A stretch of DNA of 64,000 nt from an uncultured Rhodospirillaceae bacterium (GCA_964454795.1 CAYVUM010000002.1:2030-66029); one strand, 5' to 3'; shown: positions 5,164 through 13,850, counted from the stretch's first letter. The notes: generated by a model not told the origin, from the sequence alone. Translations and numbers: made by a program.

Positions 5164-7122
5164 TCAGACGGCGAAGCAGGAGCAGCCGAGGGCGCCCCAG
5201 AAGGACTTGAGGTCGCGCACCGGAATCGGCTTGTTCCAGGCGATCCCGTGGTCGTGGCCGTGGACGGCGCAGCGATTCGTGCAACCGTCGTGGCAACTGC
5301 GCGCCTGCTGCAGCGGCGCCGTCGCCGCCGCTGTCCGCATGGCCGGCGTGTCGAAGCTGCCGACCGGCGTCCAGGACGGGCTTGCCGGCGGCAACGGCGG
5401 ATCAAGATCGGCGAAGGCACCGGCAGCATGGACGATCCTGCCGCCCACAATCGTCAGCAGCGAGGCGATGCGGCGGATGTCTTCCGCACGGACCGTAAAG
5501 AAATCATCGGACAGCACGGCGAGGTCGGCGTACTGGCCGACCGCCAGCGTGCCTTTGCGGTCCTGCTCGCCGGAGAACCAGGCCGAGCCCGCAGTCCACA
5601 GCCGCAGCGCCGTCTCCCGGTCGAGCGTACTGGCCTCGGGGTAGAGCCTCAGCCCGCCGAGGGTCCTGCCGGTGGTGATCCAGTAGAGCGCAACCCAGGG
5701 GTCGTAGGAGGACACCCGGGTGGCGTCCGTCCCCATGCCGACGGGCAGGTCGGCCGCCAACATCTGTTTGACCGGGGGCGTGCGCGCCGCGGCCCGGGCG
5801 CCATAGCGCTCCACGAAGTACTCGCCCTGAAACGCCATGCGATGCTGAACAGCGATGCCGCCGCCGAGCGTCTTGACCCGCTCGATGTTGCGCTCGCTGA
5901 TCGTCTCGGCGTGATCGATGATGAAGCGGGTCTCGAACGGCTGGCGGCCATTGACCCGCTCGAAGACCGACAGGAACCGGTCGATGCTCTCATCGTAGGT
6001 CGCATGGATCCGGAACGGCCACTTGTTGGCGGCGAGAAGCTCGACGATCGGTTCGAGCTCGGCTTCCATCACTGGCGCGAGATCGGGCCGCGGCTCCAGG
6101 AAATTCTCAAAATCGGCCGCCGACCAGGTGAGGTTCTCGCCGCCGCCGTTCATGCGCAGCATCGCATCGCCCGCCCCGGGCGTCGTCATCGCCAGCCAGC
6201 GTTCATAATCGGACAACTCCGAGCCGGGCTTTTGCGCGAACAGGTTATAGGCGATGCGAACGGTCAACTGGTCGGCTTCGTGGAGCCGCTGGATGACGTC
6301 ATAGTCTTCCGGATAGTTCTGGCCGCCGCCGCCGGCATCGATCACCGAAGTGATCCCGAGGCGGTTCATCTCGCGCATGTAGTGGCGGGTGGAGTTGATC
6401 TGGTCTTCGAGCGGGAGCTTCGGCCCCTGCGCCAGGGTCGAATACAGAATGAACGCCGAGGGTGTTGCCAGAAGAAGGCCTTTGGGTAAGCCGCTGGCAG
6501 TGCGCTCGATGGTCCCACCCGGCGGATCCGGCGTGTCGCGGGTGATGCCGAGCGCCGCAAGCGCTGCCCGGTTCAGCAATGCCCGGCCGTAGAGGTGGAG
6601 GATGAACACCGGCGTGTTCGCCGAGACGGCGTTGATCTCGTCCAGGGTCGGCATCCGCCGCTCGGCGAACTGGAACTCCGACCATCCGCCAACCACCCGA
6701 ACCCACTGCGGCGGCGGCGTCCGGTCGGCCTGCCGCTTCAGCATTCGCAGCGCATCGGCCAGCGACGGCGCCCCCTCCCAGCGCAACTCCATGTTGTAAT
6801 TGAGGCCGCCGCGGATCAGGTGGGTGTGGCTGTCGTTCAGGCCGGGAATGACCCGGCGGCCACCGAGGTCGACGCTCCGGGTGTCCTCGCCGGCCAGCCG
6901 CAGGACGTCCGGCTCCGTGCCGATGGCGGCGATCAGCCCGTCGCGGATGGCGATCGCCGCGGCTTCGGGACGGCTCCGGTCGAGGGTGGTGATGCGGCCA
7001 TTGCGGAGCACGAGGTCGGCGGCATCGGCCATGGTCTGGCTTCCGGCAGGGCTGGACCCGAGGAACGGCAGCGCGGTCGTCACTGCCATACCCCTGACGA
7101 AATCGCGGCGGCGGATCGGCAT
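5164..7122 (-). CDS. Tat-exported amidohydrolase-3 family metal-dependent hydrolase
   Basis: MPIRRRDFVRGMAVTTALPFLG is a twin-arginine signal. GLNDSHTHLIRGG is the HxH metal site, followed by ...IIDHAETI...GTDATRV. The track ORF was trimmed from 7206 to ATG 7122. Confidence 0.85.
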   Translation of the reverse strand: MPIRRRDFVRGMAVTTALPFLGSSPAGSQTMADAADLVLRNGRITTLDRSRPEAAAIAIRDGLIAAIGTEPDVLRLAGEDTRSVDLGGRRVIPGLNDSHTHLIRGGLNYNMELRWEGAPSLADALRMLKRQADRTPPPQWVRVVGGWSEFQFAERRMPTLDEINAVSANTPVFILHLYGRALLNRAALAALGITRDTPDPPGGTIERTASGLPKGLLLATPSAFILYSTLAQGPKLPLEDQINSTRHYMREMNRLGITSVIDAGGGGQNYPEDYDVIQRLHEADQLTVRIAYNLFAQKPGSELSDYERWLAMTTPGAGDAMLRMNGGGENLTWSAADFENFLEPRPDLAPVMEAELEPIVELLAANKWPFRIHATYDESIDRFLSVFERVNGRQPFETRFIIDHAETISERNIERVKTLGGGIAVQHRMAFQGEYFVERYGARAAARTPPVKQMLAADLPVGMGTDATRVSSYDPWVALYWITTGRTLGGLRLYPEASTLDRETALRLWTAGSAWFSGEQDRKGTLAVGQYADLAVLSDDFFTVRAEDIRRIASLLTIVGGRIVHAAGAFADLDPPLPPASPSWTPVGSFDTPAMRTAAATAPLQQARSCHDGCTNRCAVHGHDHGIAWNKPIPVRDLKSFWGALGCSCFAV

Positions 7123-7386
7123 GGTGCGGTCCTCTTCACGGCAAGACACGGGCGAACGCCAAGAGTCTGGCACAAGCGTCTGGCGAATGGCGAGCGGCGA
7201 GGCCACCCGGCGTCGGCTCCGGTCGCGGGACTATTCAGCCGCCCGAGAAGCCGACCCGCTCACCGGCTCCAGCCGGCCGCCGAGGCTGACCCGCTCACCG
7301 GCTTTGTGGACCATGGTGCCGGCGTCGTCGACCTCCATGCCGCAGGCGCCCGAGTGCTCCCTGACGATGCCAATCACGGCGTCCTA

Positions 7387-7505
7387 GCGGTTCGATGCTG
7401 ACGGATGGGTCCCATCCGTCAGCTGAATCGAACAACAGGATGAGGAGCTTAGCCGATCGACCGATCCTTCGCTTGGGAACCAGGCGGAGGATCCGATCCA
7501 CTGGC
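7387..7505 (+). repeat. copy A of a ~118-bp structured intergenic repeat (REP/MITE-like)
   Basis: About 85-90% identical (by eye) to the reverse complement of 12629-12745, and similar to 10787-10900. It contains a perfect 12-bp stem / 3-nt loop (7397-7423, gctgacggatgg-gtc-ccatccgtcagc) and a second imperfect hairpin (gatccttcgc...gcggaggatc). Confidence 0.85.
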
Positions 7506-8225
7506 TCAGGCCCGGCTCGCGACCTCGGCCACCCGGGCGCAAAGCGTGAGCTTTCGGCTCAATCAATATATTCCTTAGCGAAATGTTGCCAAAAACAGAC
7601 AAATAGTATATCCATGTTAATGTGATGCTGTGACAGGGCCCTAGTTTTAACGGCGCATGCGCTGTCCCGTGGGGACGACGTTGCGTCGTGTGCGGGGGGT
7701 CACGATGAAGTTTGCCGTGACTGGCAAGATTGAGTCGGCCAAGGCTACTCCTCTATGCAGCCGCTTTCGACGCAGGCTCCGCAAATCGAGGGCTGCGCAG
7801 AAGCCGGTTGGAGGACCGGGGCTGTACTTGCGCGACAGGGCGACTCCCCCTGCGGACGCATGCCAGCGCTCCTGCCATCCTGATCGATGCCGAGCGGATG
7901 CCGCTGCGCCGATCGTCGCCCGGCGTCAGGAGCCTTGCCCAGTCACCCAAGTGCCCCGGCAAGCCGATCGCAACCACGCCCATCCGGTGGTGACAGCCGT
8001 CTGGCCATGCCGCGCGGCCGGCAACCAAGCCGTATTGGAGCGCCGCGGTGCCCGGGACAAGCCGGTGCCGCATCGAACGCCGCGGGGACACCCAGTTGAG
8101 GTCCGGCACCGGCCGGCTCATCGCCGCGGCTGGCGGCTGCCGGCTGGCGGGCCGCCCTCGCCTGTCGTCGGCCGTCACGACGCGTTGATCATAACTGTCG
8201 ACCCTGAGGACTGAGGAGGATCGCC

Positions 8226-8606
8226 ATGGAATTCCATGACTGGAAGCAAAATCTGGTTGCGGAGGTGGAGGACGCGGCCGCCCGGTGCGGCGAACGGGCG
8301 CTTGCCGACCGCCATGATCCCCGAAATGAAACCGCCCAACAGGTTCTCGCCCGACTGGCAAGCGAGCTCAAAACGCTGCCGGCCGATCATCAGGGTCTGA
8401 CCGCTCTCTACAAAGAGGAGCAGGAATTCGCCAATCTGGCGAGGCCGGAGGCCGGGGAGCCGGAACACCGGTATCGCGATGCCAAAGAGGCGATCCTCAG
8501 GTCCATTGGCTACGAGAATGAGCCTTTTGAGACGGCAGACCAGTTCCTTGAGGTCCTTCGCAATGTCGCCGACGAAACCATCACCGAGTACCGCTATCGG
8601 CCGTAA
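8226..8606 (+). CDS. hypothetical acidic protein (126 aa)
   Basis: Strong SD (GAGGAGGA) 6 nt before the ATG. The composition is protein-like (MEFHDWKQNLVAEVEDAAARCG...ETADQFLEVLRNVADETITEY). I recognise no family. Confidence 0.6.
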   Translation: MEFHDWKQNLVAEVEDAAARCGERALADRHDPRNETAQQVLARLASELKTLPADHQGLTALYKEEQEFANLARPEAGEPEHRYRDAKEAILRSIGYENEPFETADQFLEVLRNVADETITEYRYRP

Positions 8607-8653
8607 GACCGTCAGCGGCGCGGGAAAGCCGGGCCCTTTCTTGGACCGTAGCC

Positions 8654-9925
8654 GTGGAGATGATGATGAAACGAAAACTGGGTCGGGGTGTCACCGTTAT
8701 CGGCGTTGGAAAGTCCAGGTTCGGCATGTTCAAAGACCGGGACTCAAAGGATCTGTTTTCGGAGGCGCTGACTAAAACACTCGCATCCGTCGACAAAGGC
8801 ATCGATCCGAACGACATCGACGCCCTGTACCTCGGCAATTTCTCGAACGACTACTTCGTCCGGCAGGCCCACTGGGGGCCACTCGTCTCCGATGTGGCCG
8901 GGTTTATACCAAAGGCAGCAACCCGGACCGAAGGCGCCTGCGCGTCCAGTTCCCAGGCGTTCCGCGAAGGCGTCTTCGCGATCGCCTCTGGCTATTACGA
9001 CATTGTGCTGGTTGGCGGCCTTGAAGATATGTCAAAGCGAACCACCGAAGATGTGGCCGAGGGACTGGCACTGGCGGCCTCGCCTTATGAGATCCGGGCG
9101 GGCTTTACCTTCCCAGGCGTTTTCGGGGCGATCGCGACGGCGTATTTCGCAAAATATGGTGCCGCTCGCCAGCACCTGTGGAACGTGACCATCAAGAGTC
9201 ACAACAACGCCAAACTCAACCCCGAAGCACAGTTCAATACCAGCCTTCGCGATATCATGGCGATCAAAACCGAATCGGCGAAGGACAAAGGAAAACCAAT
9301 ACCAGAATGGCGTGATGAGAAGGAATTCCTCGCCGATATTAAGGCAAACCCCCCGGTTGCCTGGCCGATGCACCTGTTCGATTGCTGTCCGATCAGCGAT
9401 GGCGCCGCGTGCGCGATCCTGGTTGCCGAAGACCTCGCCCGTAGTTTTACCGACAGGCCCCTCCACGTCATCGGTCTCGGGCAGGGAAGCGGCCGCGGTC
9501 TGCATGACTGCGAAGACCTCACCTCCTTCGAAGCCAACCGGTATGCCGCACAGGAAGCGTACGCGATGTCCGGACTCGGCCCTGAAGACATCCAGTTCGC
9601 CGAAGTTCACGATTGCTTTTCAATCGCAGAACTCATCCACATGGAAGATCTGGGCTTCTACAAGCCGGGCCAAGCCTACAAAGCTGTGGAGCAGGGTGAA
9701 TCCAGGCTCGACGGGCCGCTGCCGATCAACACCTCAGGGGGACTGAAGTGCAAAGGGCATCCGGTCGGCGCCACGGGCGTCGGGCAGATGGTCGAACTGT
9801 GGGCGCAACTGCGCGGCGAAGCGGGCGACCGGCAAATCCCCAAGGGCGACCTGCGGATCGGTGCCGCACAAAATCTCGGCGGCACCGGCGGCACCTGCAC
9901 GTTTACGATCCTCGAGAGGCGGTAG
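8654..9925 (+). CDS. thiolase-fold protein (archaeal/SCP-x-type acetyl-CoA acetyltransferase-like)
   Basis: TRTEGACASSSQAF carries the active-site Cys, followed by ...AEVHDCFSIAEL...NTSGGLKCKGHPVGATG, the thiolase signature. The start may be GTG 8654 or ATG 8660. Confidence 0.88.
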   Translation: MEMMMKRKLGRGVTVIGVGKSRFGMFKDRDSKDLFSEALTKTLASVDKGIDPNDIDALYLGNFSNDYFVRQAHWGPLVSDVAGFIPKAATRTEGACASSSQAFREGVFAIASGYYDIVLVGGLEDMSKRTTEDVAEGLALAASPYEIRAGFTFPGVFGAIATAYFAKYGAARQHLWNVTIKSHNNAKLNPEAQFNTSLRDIMAIKTESAKDKGKPIPEWRDEKEFLADIKANPPVAWPMHLFDCCPISDGAACAILVAEDLARSFTDRPLHVIGLGQGSGRGLHDCEDLTSFEANRYAAQEAYAMSGLGPEDIQFAEVHDCFSIAELIHMEDLGFYKPGQAYKAVEQGESRLDGPLPINTSGGLKCKGHPVGATGVGQMVELWAQLRGEAGDRQIPKGDLRIGAAQNLGGTGGTCTFTILERR

Positions 9926-9932
9926 GGCCAAG

Positions 9933-10349
9933 ATGAACGACGCGCGCTTCAACGATGTCTCGTACGAACGGTTCCTCAGTGAGGAAAAGCTGATGGGCTG
10001 CCGATGCAGCGGATGCGGGCAGCATTACGTCCCGCCGCGGCCGATCTGCCCGAAATGTTACAGCAGCACCATGGAGTGGGTGCAGATGAGCGGAAAAGGA
10101 CGCCTCGCTGCCTTTACCTGCATTCGCGTCGTTCCGCCGAACATGCAGCAATGGGGATTCAACCGTGATAATCCCTATTGTTCAGGTGTTGTTGAACTTG
10201 AAGACGGCGGCCGGGTCGTGGCGCTGATCGATGATGTCGACCCGAAGCAACCGGAGACCATCCGGATCGGCACGCCCCTTGCCGTGAAATTCCTCCACCG
10301 CGGCGAAGGCGAGGGAAAGCAGACCATCCTGGCCTTCAGCCCGGCGTAA
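9933..10349 (+). CDS. Zn-ribbon/OB-fold protein (DUF35), thiolase partner
   Basis: MGCRCSGCGQHYVPPRPICPKCYS is a 4-Cys ribbon, followed by the OB segment GKGRLAAFTCI...GVVELEDGGRV. The track ORF was trimmed to ATG 9933, 5 nt after the thiolase stop. Confidence 0.85.
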   Translation: MNDARFNDVSYERFLSEEKLMGCRCSGCGQHYVPPRPICPKCYSSTMEWVQMSGKGRLAAFTCIRVVPPNMQQWGFNRDNPYCSGVVELEDGGRVVALIDDVDPKQPETIRIGTPLAVKFLHRGEGEGKQTILAFSPA

Positions 10350-10498
10350 CTTCCGCGGGGATGGGGACGTTGGAGCGCGGGCGTGAGCCGACGTGAAATC
10401 CGGTCCCGGCTTTCCGCCCCCGGGTCGCTCCGGGGCAACGGCTTTGATCCTGTCGTTACCGATCCGGATCCGGGTGGCGGATCGTGATCGCGGGTGCT

Positions 10499-10576
10499 TG
10501 GGGCGAGAGATGGGATTCGAACCCACGACCCCCTGGACCACAACCAGGTGCTCTAACCGACTGAGCTACTCCCGCC
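10499..10576 (-). tRNA. tRNA-His (anticodon GTG) with encoded G-1 and CCA
   Basis: The reverse complement folds by hand: G(-1)-GCGGGAG-TA-GCTC-AGTCGGTTA-GAGC-A-CCTGG-TTGTGGT-CCAGG-GGGTC-GTGGG-TTCGAAT-CCCAT-CTCTCGC-C-CCA. The extra 5' G opposite C73 is the tRNA-His hallmark. Confidence 0.9.
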
Positions 10577-10786
10577 GCCGTAAAGGGTGATGTACGGGAA
10601 CCCCGGGCCGGCCGTCAAGCGGGGCCATGGCGGCCGGCATCGCGGCGCCCGGATCCGGCTGCACCGGTCGTGCGGTCGCGCCTTGTCCTTTTCGTCGAAG
10701 AAAGCGCTGAGGTGGCACCACTGCGCTGGATTGCGTTGGTGCGCTCGCCACCACGCAAGCGTCCGCAGGCAGCGGCCGCGCCGCTC

Positions 10787-10900
10787 GTCGATCGGATCCT
10801 TCGCCCGGTTCCCAGGCGAACGACCGCTCGGTCGGCCAAGCTCTGGATTTTGGAGTTCTAGTCAGCTGACGGATGGGACTTTTCCGTCAGCATCGAACCA
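10787..10900 (-). repeat. copy B of the ~118-bp structured repeat
   Basis: Aligns with copy C in the same orientation. The hairpin gctgacgga-N9-tccgtcagc lies at 10865-10891. It overlaps the last 13 codons and the stop of the FHA-SLT gene. Confidence 0.8.
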
Positions 10901-12589
10901 CGAGGACCAGTCCGGAGCGTAAGTGCGCAGCGGGTTGTCGAAGTCGAAGCCGAACAGGCGGGGGTTCTCGCCAATCACTGCCGCCGAAATGATGTAGAAC
11001 ACATAATGGTAGGTTTCCTCGGGGATCTCGTACTTCTGCAATAATGCCCAGAAGTTCCGCTCCCGCGGGTTTTCCGGCATGGTCCGGATGCGCTGGATGA
11101 TCCGGTGCGGACCCCAGTTATAGGACGCCATGACCAACAGCCCGGAGGCCTGGGCGTCGGTGTTGTAGATATCGCGCAGGAACCGCGCCGCCGCGCGGGT
11201 CGCGGCGAGAAAATCGAAGCGGTCATCGTGGGGATCGAACACCCGCTGGTCTTTCAACGGCCCGATCCTGAGGCCGTATTCCTGGCCCGTCGCCGGAATG
11301 AACTGCCAGGCGCCCTTGGCGATTCCGAAGCGGGTTTCGGGACCAATCGCCCGGATGTTGAAATTGCTTTCCTGCAGGCCGAGGTACAGGAAGTGGGGCG
11401 GCAGGCCCTGGTCGATGAGCGCCCGGGCGACCACGTCCAGGTGCCCCCGTTCCTCGAGCGCCCGCAATGCCCGCTCCAGCCGGTCCGTGGCTTGCCATTT
11501 CCGGATGTAGGTCTTGACCTCGCGAAGGAACGACGGCGGCATCTCCAGCTCACACTCGCCGAAGATCCGGGCGATCCGCAGGATCAGCGCGTCTTCGTCG
11601 TCCAGGTCCGGGTCGATCAGCCCGGCGTCCTGAATGAAGCTGTCGTAGCGGGCGCGCATCTGGCGCATCTGCGCCCGGTTGCGGCGAAGCTGGGCGATCA
11701 GCTGTTCCTCACCGGTGGCACGCACCGCCGCCTCCAGCCGGCCCAGCTCCACCTCCAAAGTCTTGATGTCGTAGAACAGGTCGATGGCGAGCCGGCGGCT
11801 CTGGTCCTCCTGCCGCGCCTGATAGAACAGGCCGCCGACGGCGGCGAGCAGCAGCCCCCCTACCCCGCCGAGGGCCAGCAGCCAGCGCCGGCGCTGGCGC
11901 CTGTGCTGCTCGCGCCAGACGAAGCGGACCGCGCGAGTGTGCTCTCCCACCTCGTCGTCGCCCGTATCCGAAAAGTAGTGGTCGCGGATCTCCTCGCGGC
12001 TCATCGGCTCGGCGTCCGGCTCCCGGGTTCCGGCCGCCTGTTCCTCGCCGGGCCCGGACGGAGCCGCCGGACCCGCTGCCGACCTGCGGTAGTGGGCGGA
12101 ACGCCCGGGCTGTGGCAGGGGCTCGGGCTCCGGTTCCTCCTCGTCGCACCGGCCGCCGCCCCTGCCACCGCTGCCGAACCAGCCGGACCGCCCCTCGCGT
12201 GCATCAGGGAGACGGGTGGCGTCGTCCCCGGCCGTGGCCCGGACCCCGCCCGGTGCCGTCCGACACACCGACAGCACCGGCCCCTGCCCGCCCAGCTGGA
12301 TCCGGGCACGGTCCGGCAGGGCCGCTTCGCCGATTCGCCGGCCGTCGAGGAACGTGCCGTTGCTGGAGCCGAGATCACGGACCGTCCAGCCGCCGCCGGC
12401 CGGCACGACCTCCGCATGTCGCCGGCTTACCCCCGCATGGGGAAGACAAACGTCATTTTCGGGATCGCGGCCGATGCGGACGGTGCGGGCGAACCGCCGG
12501 GTGACCGGCCGGCCGTCGCCGCCCGTCCAGATAATCTCGATTTCGTCCGGGATCCCCGGGCCACCGCCCGACCGTCCGCGCCCGAACAT
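10862..12589 (-). CDS. FHA-domain / transmembrane / SLT-domain lytic transglycosylase fusion protein
   Basis: N-terminal FHA: VRIGRDPENDVCLPHAGVSRRHAEV...VRDLGSSNGTFLDGRRI. TM helix: WLLALGGVGGLLLAAVGGLFY. Then a coiled-coil segment and a C-terminal SLT domain: LGLQESNFN...GIAKGAWQFIPATG...VMASYNWGPHRI. The track ORF (to 13018) was trimmed to ATG 12589 with a GGAGAGG SD, because the discarded N-terminus is a read-through of repeat copy C. Confidence 0.85.
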   Translation of the reverse strand: MFGRGRSGGGPGIPDEIEIIWTGGDGRPVTRRFARTVRIGRDPENDVCLPHAGVSRRHAEVVPAGGGWTVRDLGSSNGTFLDGRRIGEAALPDRARIQLGGQGPVLSVCRTAPGGVRATAGDDATRLPDAREGRSGWFGSGGRGGGRCDEEEPEPEPLPQPGRSAHYRRSAAGPAAPSGPGEEQAAGTREPDAEPMSREEIRDHYFSDTGDDEVGEHTRAVRFVWREQHRRQRRRWLLALGGVGGLLLAAVGGLFYQARQEDQSRRLAIDLFYDIKTLEVELGRLEAAVRATGEEQLIAQLRRNRAQMRQMRARYDSFIQDAGLIDPDLDDEDALILRIARIFGECELEMPPSFLREVKTYIRKWQATDRLERALRALEERGHLDVVARALIDQGLPPHFLYLGLQESNFNIRAIGPETRFGIAKGAWQFIPATGQEYGLRIGPLKDQRVFDPHDDRFDFLAATRAAARFLRDIYNTDAQASGLLVMASYNWGPHRIIQRIRTMPENPRERNFWALLQKYEIPEETYHYVFYIISAAVIGENPRLFGFDFDNPLRTYAPDWSSWFDADGKVPSVS

Positions 12590-12628
12590 CCTCTCCCCGC
12601 CTCGCTGTTGACCGCCCGGTGAGTCCCT

Positions 12629-12745
12629 GCCAGTGGATCGGATCCTTTGCCGGGTGCCCAAGCGAAGGATCGGTCGATCGACGAAGCTCTTGATCCTGTG
12701 GTTCGATTCAGTTGACCGATGGGACTCATCCGTCAGCATCGAACC
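12629..12745 (-). repeat. copy C of the ~118-bp structured repeat
   Basis: Its reverse complement aligns almost base-for-base with copy A (ggttcgatgctgacggat..gtcccatc.gtca.ctgaatcgaac.acaggat.a.gagctt...cgatcgaccgatccttcgcttggg.acc.gg....ggatccgatccactggc). Confidence 0.85.
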
Positions 12746-12761
12746 CCTGGGGCGAAGCAAT

Positions 12762-13850
12762 CTAGGGCGTTTGCCCGCATGCTGTCCACGCCAGCCGACC
12801 GGGCCGGCGGGCCAGCTCAGGCGCCGGGGCGTGCGAAGGCAACGGCGCCGCCGGATTGCCGATCCAGGCGGCGACGTCCGCCCAGACCCGTTCGGCATCC
12901 AGGTCGCGGAGCAGCATGTGGTAGGCATCCGGGTAGAGGGCGGTCCGTCGCACCCCCGTGTTATCGTAGCCCAGCCGGCTGAGAAACCGGCACATCGCCA
13001 CATCGGGCACCAGCTCATCCCGGCCGCCGAGCAGGATCAGCACCGGCCCGCGAAGCTGCGGAGCAGACGCCTGGGCCGCATCCATCAGATTGACCAGGCC
13101 CTGGATCGCGTCGATACGGGTTTCCTTGATCACCAGCGGATCGCGGCCCAGCGCCCGCAGCATCTCGACATTGTCGGAGGGCTTGACCCCGAGGCCGCGC
13201 CCGGAGAGGGTCATGCTCGGAGCGATCCGGCTCGACACCCAGAGGGCGGCGTTCTGGTACCAGGGCATCGTCTCCCGGCCGCGGACCGCCGGCGCCGCCA
13301 GGATCAGGCCATCGGCATCCAGCCCGGCCGGTCCGGTCGCCGCGACGATCGCCACCGCGCCGCCCATGCTTTCACCGAGCACGAACAGCGGCGTGGCGGG
13401 GTGGCGGGCGCGCACAGCAGCGACGGCATCGCGAAGGTCTCCGACCAGAGTGGCGGTGCCAGGCCAGATGCCCGGGTTTGGCGCGCCCCCGAAGCCGCGC
13501 TGGTCGTAGGCATAGGCGGCGATGCCGCGGGTCGCCAGCCAGGTGCCGGGCTTGGCGAAGAACCGGCCGTAATCATTGAATCCGTGAAGCGCCAGGATCA
13601 CCGCCGCGGCCTCACCGTCCCCGGGCAGCCAGCTGTGGAGTGGCAGCGCCGCGCCGTCGCGGACCAACAGACTCTCGCCCGCCAGGGCCGGAGCCATCCG
13701 CTCGGGGCCGGCAGGGATGACCGTCGCCGTACAGGCGCCGATCCCGGCCAGGGCGGCAATCAGCAGGCCGCGGAGAAACCGCCCGACGGCGACGGCGGCT
13801 CCTGCCGGGTCAGGACCGCCCGGCGTCCCTTTCGATGTCGGAGTCATCAT
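12762..13850 (-). CDS. alpha/beta hydrolase (lysophospholipase/monoglyceride-lipase-like), probable lipoprotein
   Basis: LLIAALAGIGAC is a lipobox. HGFNDY...YDQRGFG...VLGESMGG is the nucleophile elbow. It overlaps the upstream ABC ATPase gene by 41 nt, and the exact start is uncertain. Confidence 0.8.
   Translation of the reverse strand: MMTPTSKGTPGGPDPAGAAVAVGRFLRGLLIAALAGIGACTATVIPAGPERMAPALAGESLLVRDGAALPLHSWLPGDGEAAAVILALHGFNDYGRFFAKPGTWLATRGIAAYAYDQRGFGGAPNPGIWPGTATLVGDLRDAVAAVRARHPATPLFVLGESMGGAVAIVAATGPAGLDADGLILAAPAVRGRETMPWYQNAALWVSSRIAPSMTLSGRGLGVKPSDNVEMLRALGRDPLVIKETRIDAIQGLVNLMDAAQASAPQLRGPVLILLGGRDELVPDVAMCRFLSRLGYDNTGVRRTALYPDAYHMLLRDLDAERVWADVAAWIGNPAAPLPSHAPAPELARRPGRLAWTACGQTP

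Follow-up and report, generated by a model that had tools for sequence, protein, structure and literature searches.

We analysed a 64,000-nt stretch of DNA (the window) from an uncultured Rhodospirillaceae bacterium (GCA_964454795.1 CAYVUM010000002.1:2030-66029), in which a structured repeat occurs three times within 5.4 kb, as copies A, B and C (Table 1). We recovered the copies by repeat search and MAFFT alignment and took their exact bounds from a genome-wide alignment of 75 copies. Copy A lies 234 nt upstream of the start of an amidohydrolase gene, in a divergent or promoter-side gap. The first 43 nt of copy B are the 3' end of a lytic transglycosylase gene (the FHA-SLT gene). Copy C is intergenic, with the stop of a hydrolase gene on one side and the start of the FHA-SLT gene on the other; the hydrolase gene has its TAG stop within a CTAG of its own, which precedes copy C by 11 nt.

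A first-pass annotation of the window had described three copies at 85-90% identity, each with two hairpins. All three exist and folding gives two hairpins in each; in ungapped pairwise comparison over 121 nt, A and C are indeed 88% identical, but B is more divergent than claimed (79% to A, 78% to C). The same annotation was right about a perfect 12-bp stem in copy A (the apical stem GCTGACGGATGG/CCATCCGTCAGC), about the overlap of copy B with the final 13 codons and stop of the FHA-SLT gene (tail ...DWS-SWFDADGKVPSVS, then the stop), and about the absence of a transposase from the window. Copy C does lie 40 nt upstream of the FHA-SLT start, and by our boundaries it is 11 nt downstream of the hydrolase stop, against the 17 nt of that annotation.

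Table 1. Copies of the element and adjacent features (window positions).
Feature	Position	Strand	Description
Copy A	7384-7504	+	121 nt, 89% identity to consensus, ends CTAG...CTGG
tRNA-His(GTG)	10499-10575	-	208 nt beyond copy B
Copy B	10784-10904	-	82% identity to consensus, ends CTCG...CGAG
Element-encoded FHA-SLT tail	10862-10903	-	TCG (Ser, putative former stop), WFDADG, AAA (Lys), VPSVS, TGA
FHA-TM-SLT lytic transglycosylase gene, 575 aa	10862-12589	-	Pfam FHA, Yop-YscD_cpl, SLT; homologues
Copy C	12630-12750	-	88% identity to consensus, ends CCAG...CTGG
Alpha/beta hydrolase gene (Hydrolase_4)	12762-13850	-	Pfam

We searched the whole 3.56-Mb, 201-contig draft assembly with BLAST and iterated nhmmer. 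The 281 raw matches, 55 of which touch contig ends, reduce to about 130 non-overlapping loci: 83 full-length copies, about 31 copies cut by a contig end, and a few internal deletion derivatives. The repeat is thus a multi-copy interspersed family of which the window holds only three members. Linked variants divide the family into two subfamilies (65C-86T-100G versus 65T-86C-100A), the first of which takes in all three window copies, A, B and C. Mean identity is 89% to the consensus and 83% between pairs. With a mean consensus identity of only 89% and no two copies as much as 97% alike, the members of the family found here are probably old, inactive fossils. A blastn search of PLSDB plasmids gave no match.

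The family consensus is 121 nt long (CTAGTGGTTCGATGCTGACGGATGAGTCCCATCCGTCAGCTGAATCGAACCACAAGATCAATCGCTTAGTGGATCGACCGATCATTCGCTTGGGAACCAGGCGAAGGATCCGATCCACTAG), and conservation falls to background exactly outside C1 and G121 when the 75 full-length copies are aligned with 25-nt flanks. The 115-nt core, GTGG...CCAC, consists of two hairpin modules of about 50 nt, HP1 (consensus positions 4-53) and HP2 (67-120), joined by a linker of 10-14 nt and sharing the base GTGGWTCGA...TCGAWCCAC. The predicted folds are very stable: the minimum free energy of the consensus is -69.7 kcal/mol as RNA (z = -11.0 versus shuffles) and -43.8 kcal/mol as DNA (z = -10.8), and the opposite strand is nearly as foldable (-65 kcal/mol). 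As terminal inverted repeats, the left end CTAGTGGTTCGAT and the reverse complement of the right end, CTAGTGGATCGGAT, match at 11 of 13 positions; in the G008-type element of a relative the terminal repeats match at about 14 of 18. Together with its target, the terminal motif reads CTAG-GTGGWTCGATGCTGACGG. The reading frames that enter the element hold stop codons, and the element is non-coding. Two GANTC motifs are carried by the HP1 consensus, GAGTC in the loop and GAATC in a bulge.

Shortened forms also occur. Internal deletion derivatives (G000 C24:34248-34312; also L089 of G008) join the left arm of HP1, or the whole of HP1, to the right end of HP2, and single, perfectly palindromic HP1 units are present in relatives (L072, L063, L128). 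Half-element matches away from contig ends were considered as termini of a larger element and turned out to be deletion derivatives instead; the one at C24:34248, for example, adjoins flgH and a photolyase gene.

Both ends of the element read CTAG. The outer and core-edge bases (C1, G4, C118 and G121) survive in 85-93% of copies; for the T and A inside the terminal CTAGs the figure is only 49-67%. We compared filled and empty sites between two relatives, G003 (UXAT02 'DF3PA') and G023 (Defluviicoccus sp. SCELSE-4-Def), with flanks that are 93-95% identical. At locus 1, G023 is filled (...GGGGC-CTAG-TGGTTCG...GATCCA-CTAG-ATCAAACC) and G003 is empty, with a single CTAG (...GGCGT-CTAG-ATCAAACC). 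At locus 2 the roles are exchanged: the filled site is that of G003 (CTAG...CTCG), and the empty site of G023 reads CTCG. Both pairs differ by exactly 117 nt, which can be counted as TA added to the 115-nt core (GTGG...CCAC) or, with the same result, as CTAG added to a 113-nt core. The element inserts at CTAG and duplicates its target, either TA or the four nucleotides of CTAG, both of which yield the identical sequence. These two site pairs provide the insertion polymorphism in relatives that the first-pass annotation had raised.

Flank searches at further loci of the same two genomes gave a site filled in both (L148). Those of L137 and L138 in G023 led to strain-specific DNA with no counterpart in G003 and hence no empty site, and these two copies, at least, seem to lie within strain-variable regions. 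The search with L149 of G003 returned no G023 match at E<=1e-60, a cut-off that even the element would fail, and is not informative. Two other modes of insertion were ruled out: a variable 2-nt target-site duplication, as left and right tetranucleotides are uncorrelated, and an asymmetric insertion with no duplication (TAGTGG...CCAC at C^TNG), as TA is equally variable at both ends. CTAG itself is about 5-fold under-represented in this genome (397 occurrences versus 1949 expected from trinucleotide frequencies). Where it serves no gene, the terminal TA has disappeared at several times the rate of the element's other positions. T->G/A->C changes are as frequent there as transitions, which is not like classic very-short-patch (VSP) repair.

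The edges of the element often coincide with gene ends. We called genes with a simple codon-usage caller (2761 genes, 83% coverage), scored the 150 ends of 75 copies, and counted gene overlaps over the 83 full-length loci. Upstream open reading frames (ORFs) of at least 150 codons run in the TAG frame at 22 left and 22 right ends, an enrichment over the other frames, which have 8 and 11 such ends on the left and 2 and 6 on the right. At 20/150 ends a called gene uses the terminal TAG as its stop. At 5/150 the TAG is mutated and a gene's frame continues through it, to terminate within the element, and at 2/150 a gene ends inside it in another frame. None of the full-length loci lies wholly inside a called gene and none covers a gene's 5' end, the overlaps being with 3' ends only; this 0/83 is unlike the in-frame placement within coding regions of RPE-type palindromic elements. 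The TAG is intact at 20 of the 25 gene-used ends versus 20 of the 123 unused ends (Fisher p = 1.2e-9), so selection preserves the terminal TAG where it is used as a stop. Copies sit in 22 convergent, 37 tandem and 6 divergent gaps, and their orientation relative to genes is unbiased (21 same, 16 opposite).

The base composition of the core ends accounts for this coincidence. With G as its first base and C as its last, a core that enters the TA of a C-TAG stop restores TAG, on either strand. CTAG is very rare in this genome, and many of those that do no harm consist of a C followed by a TAG stop codon. After insertion the terminal TA decays fast unless its TAG works as a stop. Copy A provides a further case of a reading frame that ends at an element edge: a 195-codon ORF (6800-7387, + strand), antisense to the amidohydrolase gene, terminates exactly at the TAG of copy A. 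This ORF is spurious, ended by the edge of the element, and is a possible annotation trap.

Copy B has gone a step further. The FHA-SLT gene ends GAC TGG TCC TCG TGG TTC GAT GCT GAC GGA AAA GTC CCA TCC GTC AGC TGA, in which the TCG codon occupies element positions 2-4 (consensus TAG) and AAA occupies positions 23-25 (consensus TGA). The closest homologue, P0002 (71% identity, from a Logan contig), ends ...RAYAQDWY and then TGA, exactly at our TCG; its locus is element-free downstream, and 34 nt separate the hydrolase gene from its start. The same-genus ortholog, in G001, ends ...NPLQGFVDVASQ (...GFVDVASQ) and is also element-free, and twenty other FHA-SLT homologues have unrelated short tails. 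The first-pass proposal that the repeat donates the gene's C-terminus is thereby upheld: the final 13 residues are encoded by the element, and the compared homologues, including the same-genus ortholog and the 71% homologue, lack them. Neither outcome that the annotation had named as a refutation is seen: the genome has far more than three copies, and homologues are without the tail. Its picture of a remodelled gene end needs one correction, in that the element would have landed on the TAG stop and not inside the coding region.

The comparison with P0002 suggests a stepwise origin for this tail. The element would first have sat exactly on a TAG stop, where the closest homologue has TGA; the TAG would then have mutated to TCG, and the first in-frame TGA of the element would have become AAA. 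Translation would now continue into HP1 for 13 codons, as far as the next TGA, and give the tail SWFDADGKVPSVS. Four other genes of this genome have shorter tails of the same origin, usually WFDADG to the first in-frame TGA. A scan of JGI metagenomes for strain variants, by means of a 30-mer taken at the 3' end of the FHA-SLT gene, gave no match, and a look-up of contigs encoding the FHA-SLT protein returned no record. In the contig of the closest relative (L027:1355-1390), the hydrolase gene has within its 3' end the sequence CCTAGTGGATAGAACAATGGCGGATCGATGG, which resembles the terminal motif of the element and may be an element remnant, or chance.

The element is found by BLAST in 13 of 41 relatives and is patchy even within genera, the same-genus genome giving a single weak match. 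An 18-mer scan of named genomes placed its hosts among alphaproteobacterial metagenome-assembled genomes (MAGs) of the Defluviicoccus group or labelled 'Rhodospirillaceae', and a MAG of the Acetobacteraceae has an HP1-like module. With a covariance model (R1), full-length, CTAG-bounded, two-hairpin relatives were detected in 18 of 300 genomes from across the class, in about 17 families. Within our family HP1 is nearly invariant and HP2 varies by lineage with its pairing kept, 10 pairs having changed on both sides; among the class-wide relatives HP1 too shows compensatory changes. The GAATC of the HP1 bulge is conserved across distant lineages, but the GANTC of the loop is not. Inside this genome, departures from consensus pairs are mostly uncompensated, with 220 mismatches, 123 A.C, 110 G.U and only 38 compensated pairs. 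Strand-specific RNA selection in this genome was considered and ruled out: G.U (110) is no commoner than A.C (123), and orientation is 21 versus 16. A quick motif search for a CcrM gene in crude gene calls gave no match and is not informative. An Rfam scan of the region found no element family, its sole real match being the tRNA-His; on copies A and C it gave two weak matches to miRNA models, far below threshold, which we consider chance.

The DNA between the inverted copies A and B (7506-10786) has a lower GC content than the genome (0.55-0.62 vs 0.67). It holds a thiolase-like gene (8654-9925), a gene for a ChsH2-type OB-fold/zinc-ribbon protein (9861-10349) and the tRNA-His. No gene is convincing in its first 1.1 kb or so (7506-8650), where two ORFs (8226-8606 and 7753-8361) are without a Pfam match and an AT-rich core lies near 7560-7660. 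The DNA downstream of the FHA-SLT gene is not alike in relatives (L014, L027), as expected for a variable region beside a tRNA gene.

Taken together, these results make it very probable that copies A, B and C are old, immobile copies of a family of non-autonomous DNA transposons of the MITE type (MITEs being miniature transposable elements with inverted repeats) that inserts at CTAG. The family, widespread in the Defluviicoccus group and also among other Alphaproteobacteria, is small, non-coding and present in many copies, has terminal inverted repeats, and duplicates its target, as the filled and empty sites reveal. The first-pass label, REP/MITE-like, was apt as to a MITE-type, multi-copy element of polymorphic insertion but not as to a REP in the RAYT sense, for which a Y1 transposase would be needed. 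Spread as single-stranded hairpins by a RAYT (Y1, IS200/IS605-like) transposase, as for REPs and REPINs, would fit the long imperfect palindrome of each module, the doublet occurrence seen in REPINs and BIMEs, and the compensatory changes that keep the hairpins paired between lineages. It is nevertheless very improbable: among the 41 genomes searched, Pfam Y1_Tnp (PF01797) has no match in this genome or in the 12 other element-bearing ones and is present in 16 element-free relatives, the ends are CTAG and not a REP head of the GTAG type, and the target is duplicated at insertion, whereas to our knowledge IS200/IS605-type elements make no target duplication. The first-pass annotation had also suggested that the copies bracket the FHA-SLT gene and could mediate its deletion or duplication. 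A bracketing role finds no support, and deletion or duplication of the gene by the copies is unlikely. In a composite transposon or cassette, the inverted pair A/B or the direct pair B/C would bound a larger unit able to move or recombine, with the 3.3-kb low-GC stretch or the FHA-SLT gene as its cargo; A and B do flank DNA of lower GC beside the tRNA-His, and B and C are direct repeats around a single gene. Such a unit is scarcely credible, however, as relatives that have neither B nor C keep the order hydrolase-FHA-SLT, the longest identical run common to these two copies is at most 17 bases, and all three copies are old (82-89% to consensus) with ends that have decayed differently. Copy triples within 6 kb number 4, versus 2.2 +/- 1.7 expected from random placement; local clustering is not significant, and three copies within 5.4 kb are within chance on this assembly.

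A host function of the CIR type is quite unlikely as the primary explanation. The copies would then be retained because their hairpins stabilise or terminate RNA at 3' ends, or form clusters of CcrM methylation sites (GANTC), with mobility secondary; the mostly post-genic placement, the very stable folds, the two GANTC of HP1 with the bulge motif conserved across distant lineages, and the similar description of CIR summarised in PMC2229807 all speak for it. However, decay in this genome is uncompensated, with G.U about equal to A.C, and there is no orientation bias. The GANTC motifs are intact in 44/75 copies (loop GAGTC) and 54/75 (bulge GAATC), no better than neighbouring positions, the element is patchy among close relatives, and CTAG/TAG targeting, combined with purifying selection, accounts for its position after genes. 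Some observations do weigh against a MITE that inserts at CTAG. The apical pairing of both hairpins is kept by compensatory change between lineages, and a transposase that binds only the termini would not require pairing. One of the two empty sites is CTCG, which implies decay after divergence or a looser target, and all the empty-site evidence comes from relatives, none from this genome. In the two copies common to G003 and G023 the termini have mutated independently (CTAG vs CTCG; CTAG/CTCG vs CGAG/GTAG), so the CTCG site can plausibly be read as a decayed ancestral CTAG. An autonomous insertion sequence (IS) with matching ends was found neither in this genome nor in the loci fetched from relatives, in a search that was not exhaustive; the two IS630-like (DDE_3) genes of this genome, C131 and C155, have unrelated ends; and genome G008, with at least 35 element matches, has no DDE_3 match. 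MAGs often lose IS elements, which makes this last point weak evidence. It is also conceivable, but unlikely, that the family belongs, as one branch, to a superfamily of CTAG-bounded double hairpins that extends across the Alphaproteobacteria and includes CIR and Bru-RS. Such elements would spread in a hairpin-dependent manner by an enzyme other than a RAYT or an ordinary IS630 partner, their G...C ends would be adapted for silent insertion into amber stops, and the loss of TA would come from a CTAG-specific process or from excision of copies with intact flanks.

Under the MITE reading, an enzyme would act in trans. We tentatively favour a DDE transposase of the IS630/Tc1-mariner type, at slightly less than even odds; an IS5/IS427-type transposase is a possible, more doubtful candidate. 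The ends read C-TA-[G...C]-TA-G and one empty site is CTAG, a sequence that a 4-nt duplication of the IS5 type would equally give. Target behaviour that fits is published for IS630 (PMC2170065) as well as for IS5-family elements such as IS711 (PMC3163539) and MITEPsy1 (PMC3189936). IS630-like loci, both here and in G020, G024, G006 and G003, were rejected as partners, as they lack TAGTGGWTCGA ends. The related MAG CBDHDN carries a multicopy IS630-like IS with the end GAGCGGGTCCGG... and with ends ...GGACCCGCTC-TA-G at three different sites. One copy (L066:2564-4980), interrupted by an IS3-family element, abuts with its end the terminal CTAG of an element copy, and two other copies also end at CTAG. 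The ends of this IS are unrelated to those of the element, so it is not the cognate partner and uses the CTAG at the element edge merely as a target; the repeats thus supply CTAG targets to IS630-type elements. Elsewhere, an 853-bp unit (L052:2627-3479, G020:C3) has 20-nt inverted repeats starting at CTAG (CTAGGGTCTGTTGACATACA...), with ends unrelated to the element.

The element is of an ordinary kind; what stands out is an unusually clear record of protein lengthening. Its points of interest are the filled and empty CTAG sites, the stop-codon logic with its signature of selection, the origin of the tail, the decay of CTAG and the missing transposase. It is a natural example of how the choice of CTAG as target and the G...C end bases let a transposon live on stop codons, where later decay of the stop adds short peptides to proteins. 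In practical terms, the family explains odd C-terminal tails (five genes here) and long spurious ORFs ending at element edges, and with at least 31 of about 130 loci touching contig ends it is probably a major cause of fragmentation in this and related MAGs. Insertion polymorphisms in the Defluviicoccus group could serve as strain markers in wastewater communities. The family also gives a sharper form to a question about Alphaproteobacteria, namely what enzyme mobilises their CIR/Bru-RS-like repeats.

Among known systems, CIR and Bru-RS come closest. The CIR (CcrM-associated intergenic repeats) occur in Alphaproteobacteria such as Caulobacter and Brucella (Chen & Shapiro 2003, via PMC2229807). 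As summarised there, CIR are about 110 bp long, with two arms and a linker, GANTC at the loop and TA termini, and their mobility is called unresolved. Compared by description, our element shares the alphaproteobacterial host, a length of about 110-120 nt, intergenic position and stop codons in its frames, as well as two separate long inverted-repeat arms with a linker in place of one end-to-end stem, 5'-TA-3' termini, and GANTC in or at a loop (here the GAGTC loop and GAATC bulge of HP1). It differs from that account in that GANTC is intact in only 59-72% of copies, and in that insertion at CTAG, its polymorphism by 117 nt and the coincidence with stop codons are here observed directly. Membership in CIR is thus a well-founded lead at the level of description. 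Bru-RS1 and Bru-RS2 of Brucella (PMC3163539, PMC2267715), again compared by description, are palindromic intergenic repeats of about 103-118 nt from an alphaproteobacterium, likewise tied to YTAR/CTAG sites with TA duplicated. IS711 duplicates TA at YTAR sites inside Bru-RS1 (PMC3163539), which the IS of CBDHDN at the terminal CTAG of our element parallels. However, the Brucella repeat is the target of an IS, whereas here the repeat itself is the inserted unit.

Elements of the IS630/Tc1-mariner type and their MITEs (IS630, ISY100, RUP of S. pneumoniae; PMC2170065, PMC2229807) resemble our element in having a TA between C and G; a preference of IS630 for the TA in CTAG is cited in PMC2170065 (Tenzen & Ohtsubo 1991). 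Such MITEs share with our element a length of about 100-120 nt, terminal inverted repeats, high copy number and lack of coding capacity. The terminal inverted repeats of RUP match those of IS630-Spn1, whereas no IS with matching ends was found in our search, and the dimeric two-hairpin layout is atypical of IS630-derived MITEs. MITEPsy1 of Pseudomonas syringae, a 100-nt MITE derived from the IS5-family ISPsy2, also duplicates CTAG (or YTAA; PMC3189936), but its terminal inverted repeats are of the GGAAGGT type (versus GTGGWTCGA), and it has only one pair of inverted repeats and few copies. That MITEs overlap the 3' ends of genes, and now and then extend a protein at its C-terminus, is already on record: QMITE1/2 of Coxiella, ERIC/YPAL/RU-3 and Correia elements overlap or extend gene 3' ends, and EnhC of the Dugway strain has an element-encoded C-terminal tail (PMC5896051, PMC2229807). 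Our element resembles these in overlapping C-terminal gene ends by 1-50 bp. Unlike them, it gives this overlap a defined cause, a terminal TAG that is the stop of the gene, and leaves a measurable signature of selection.

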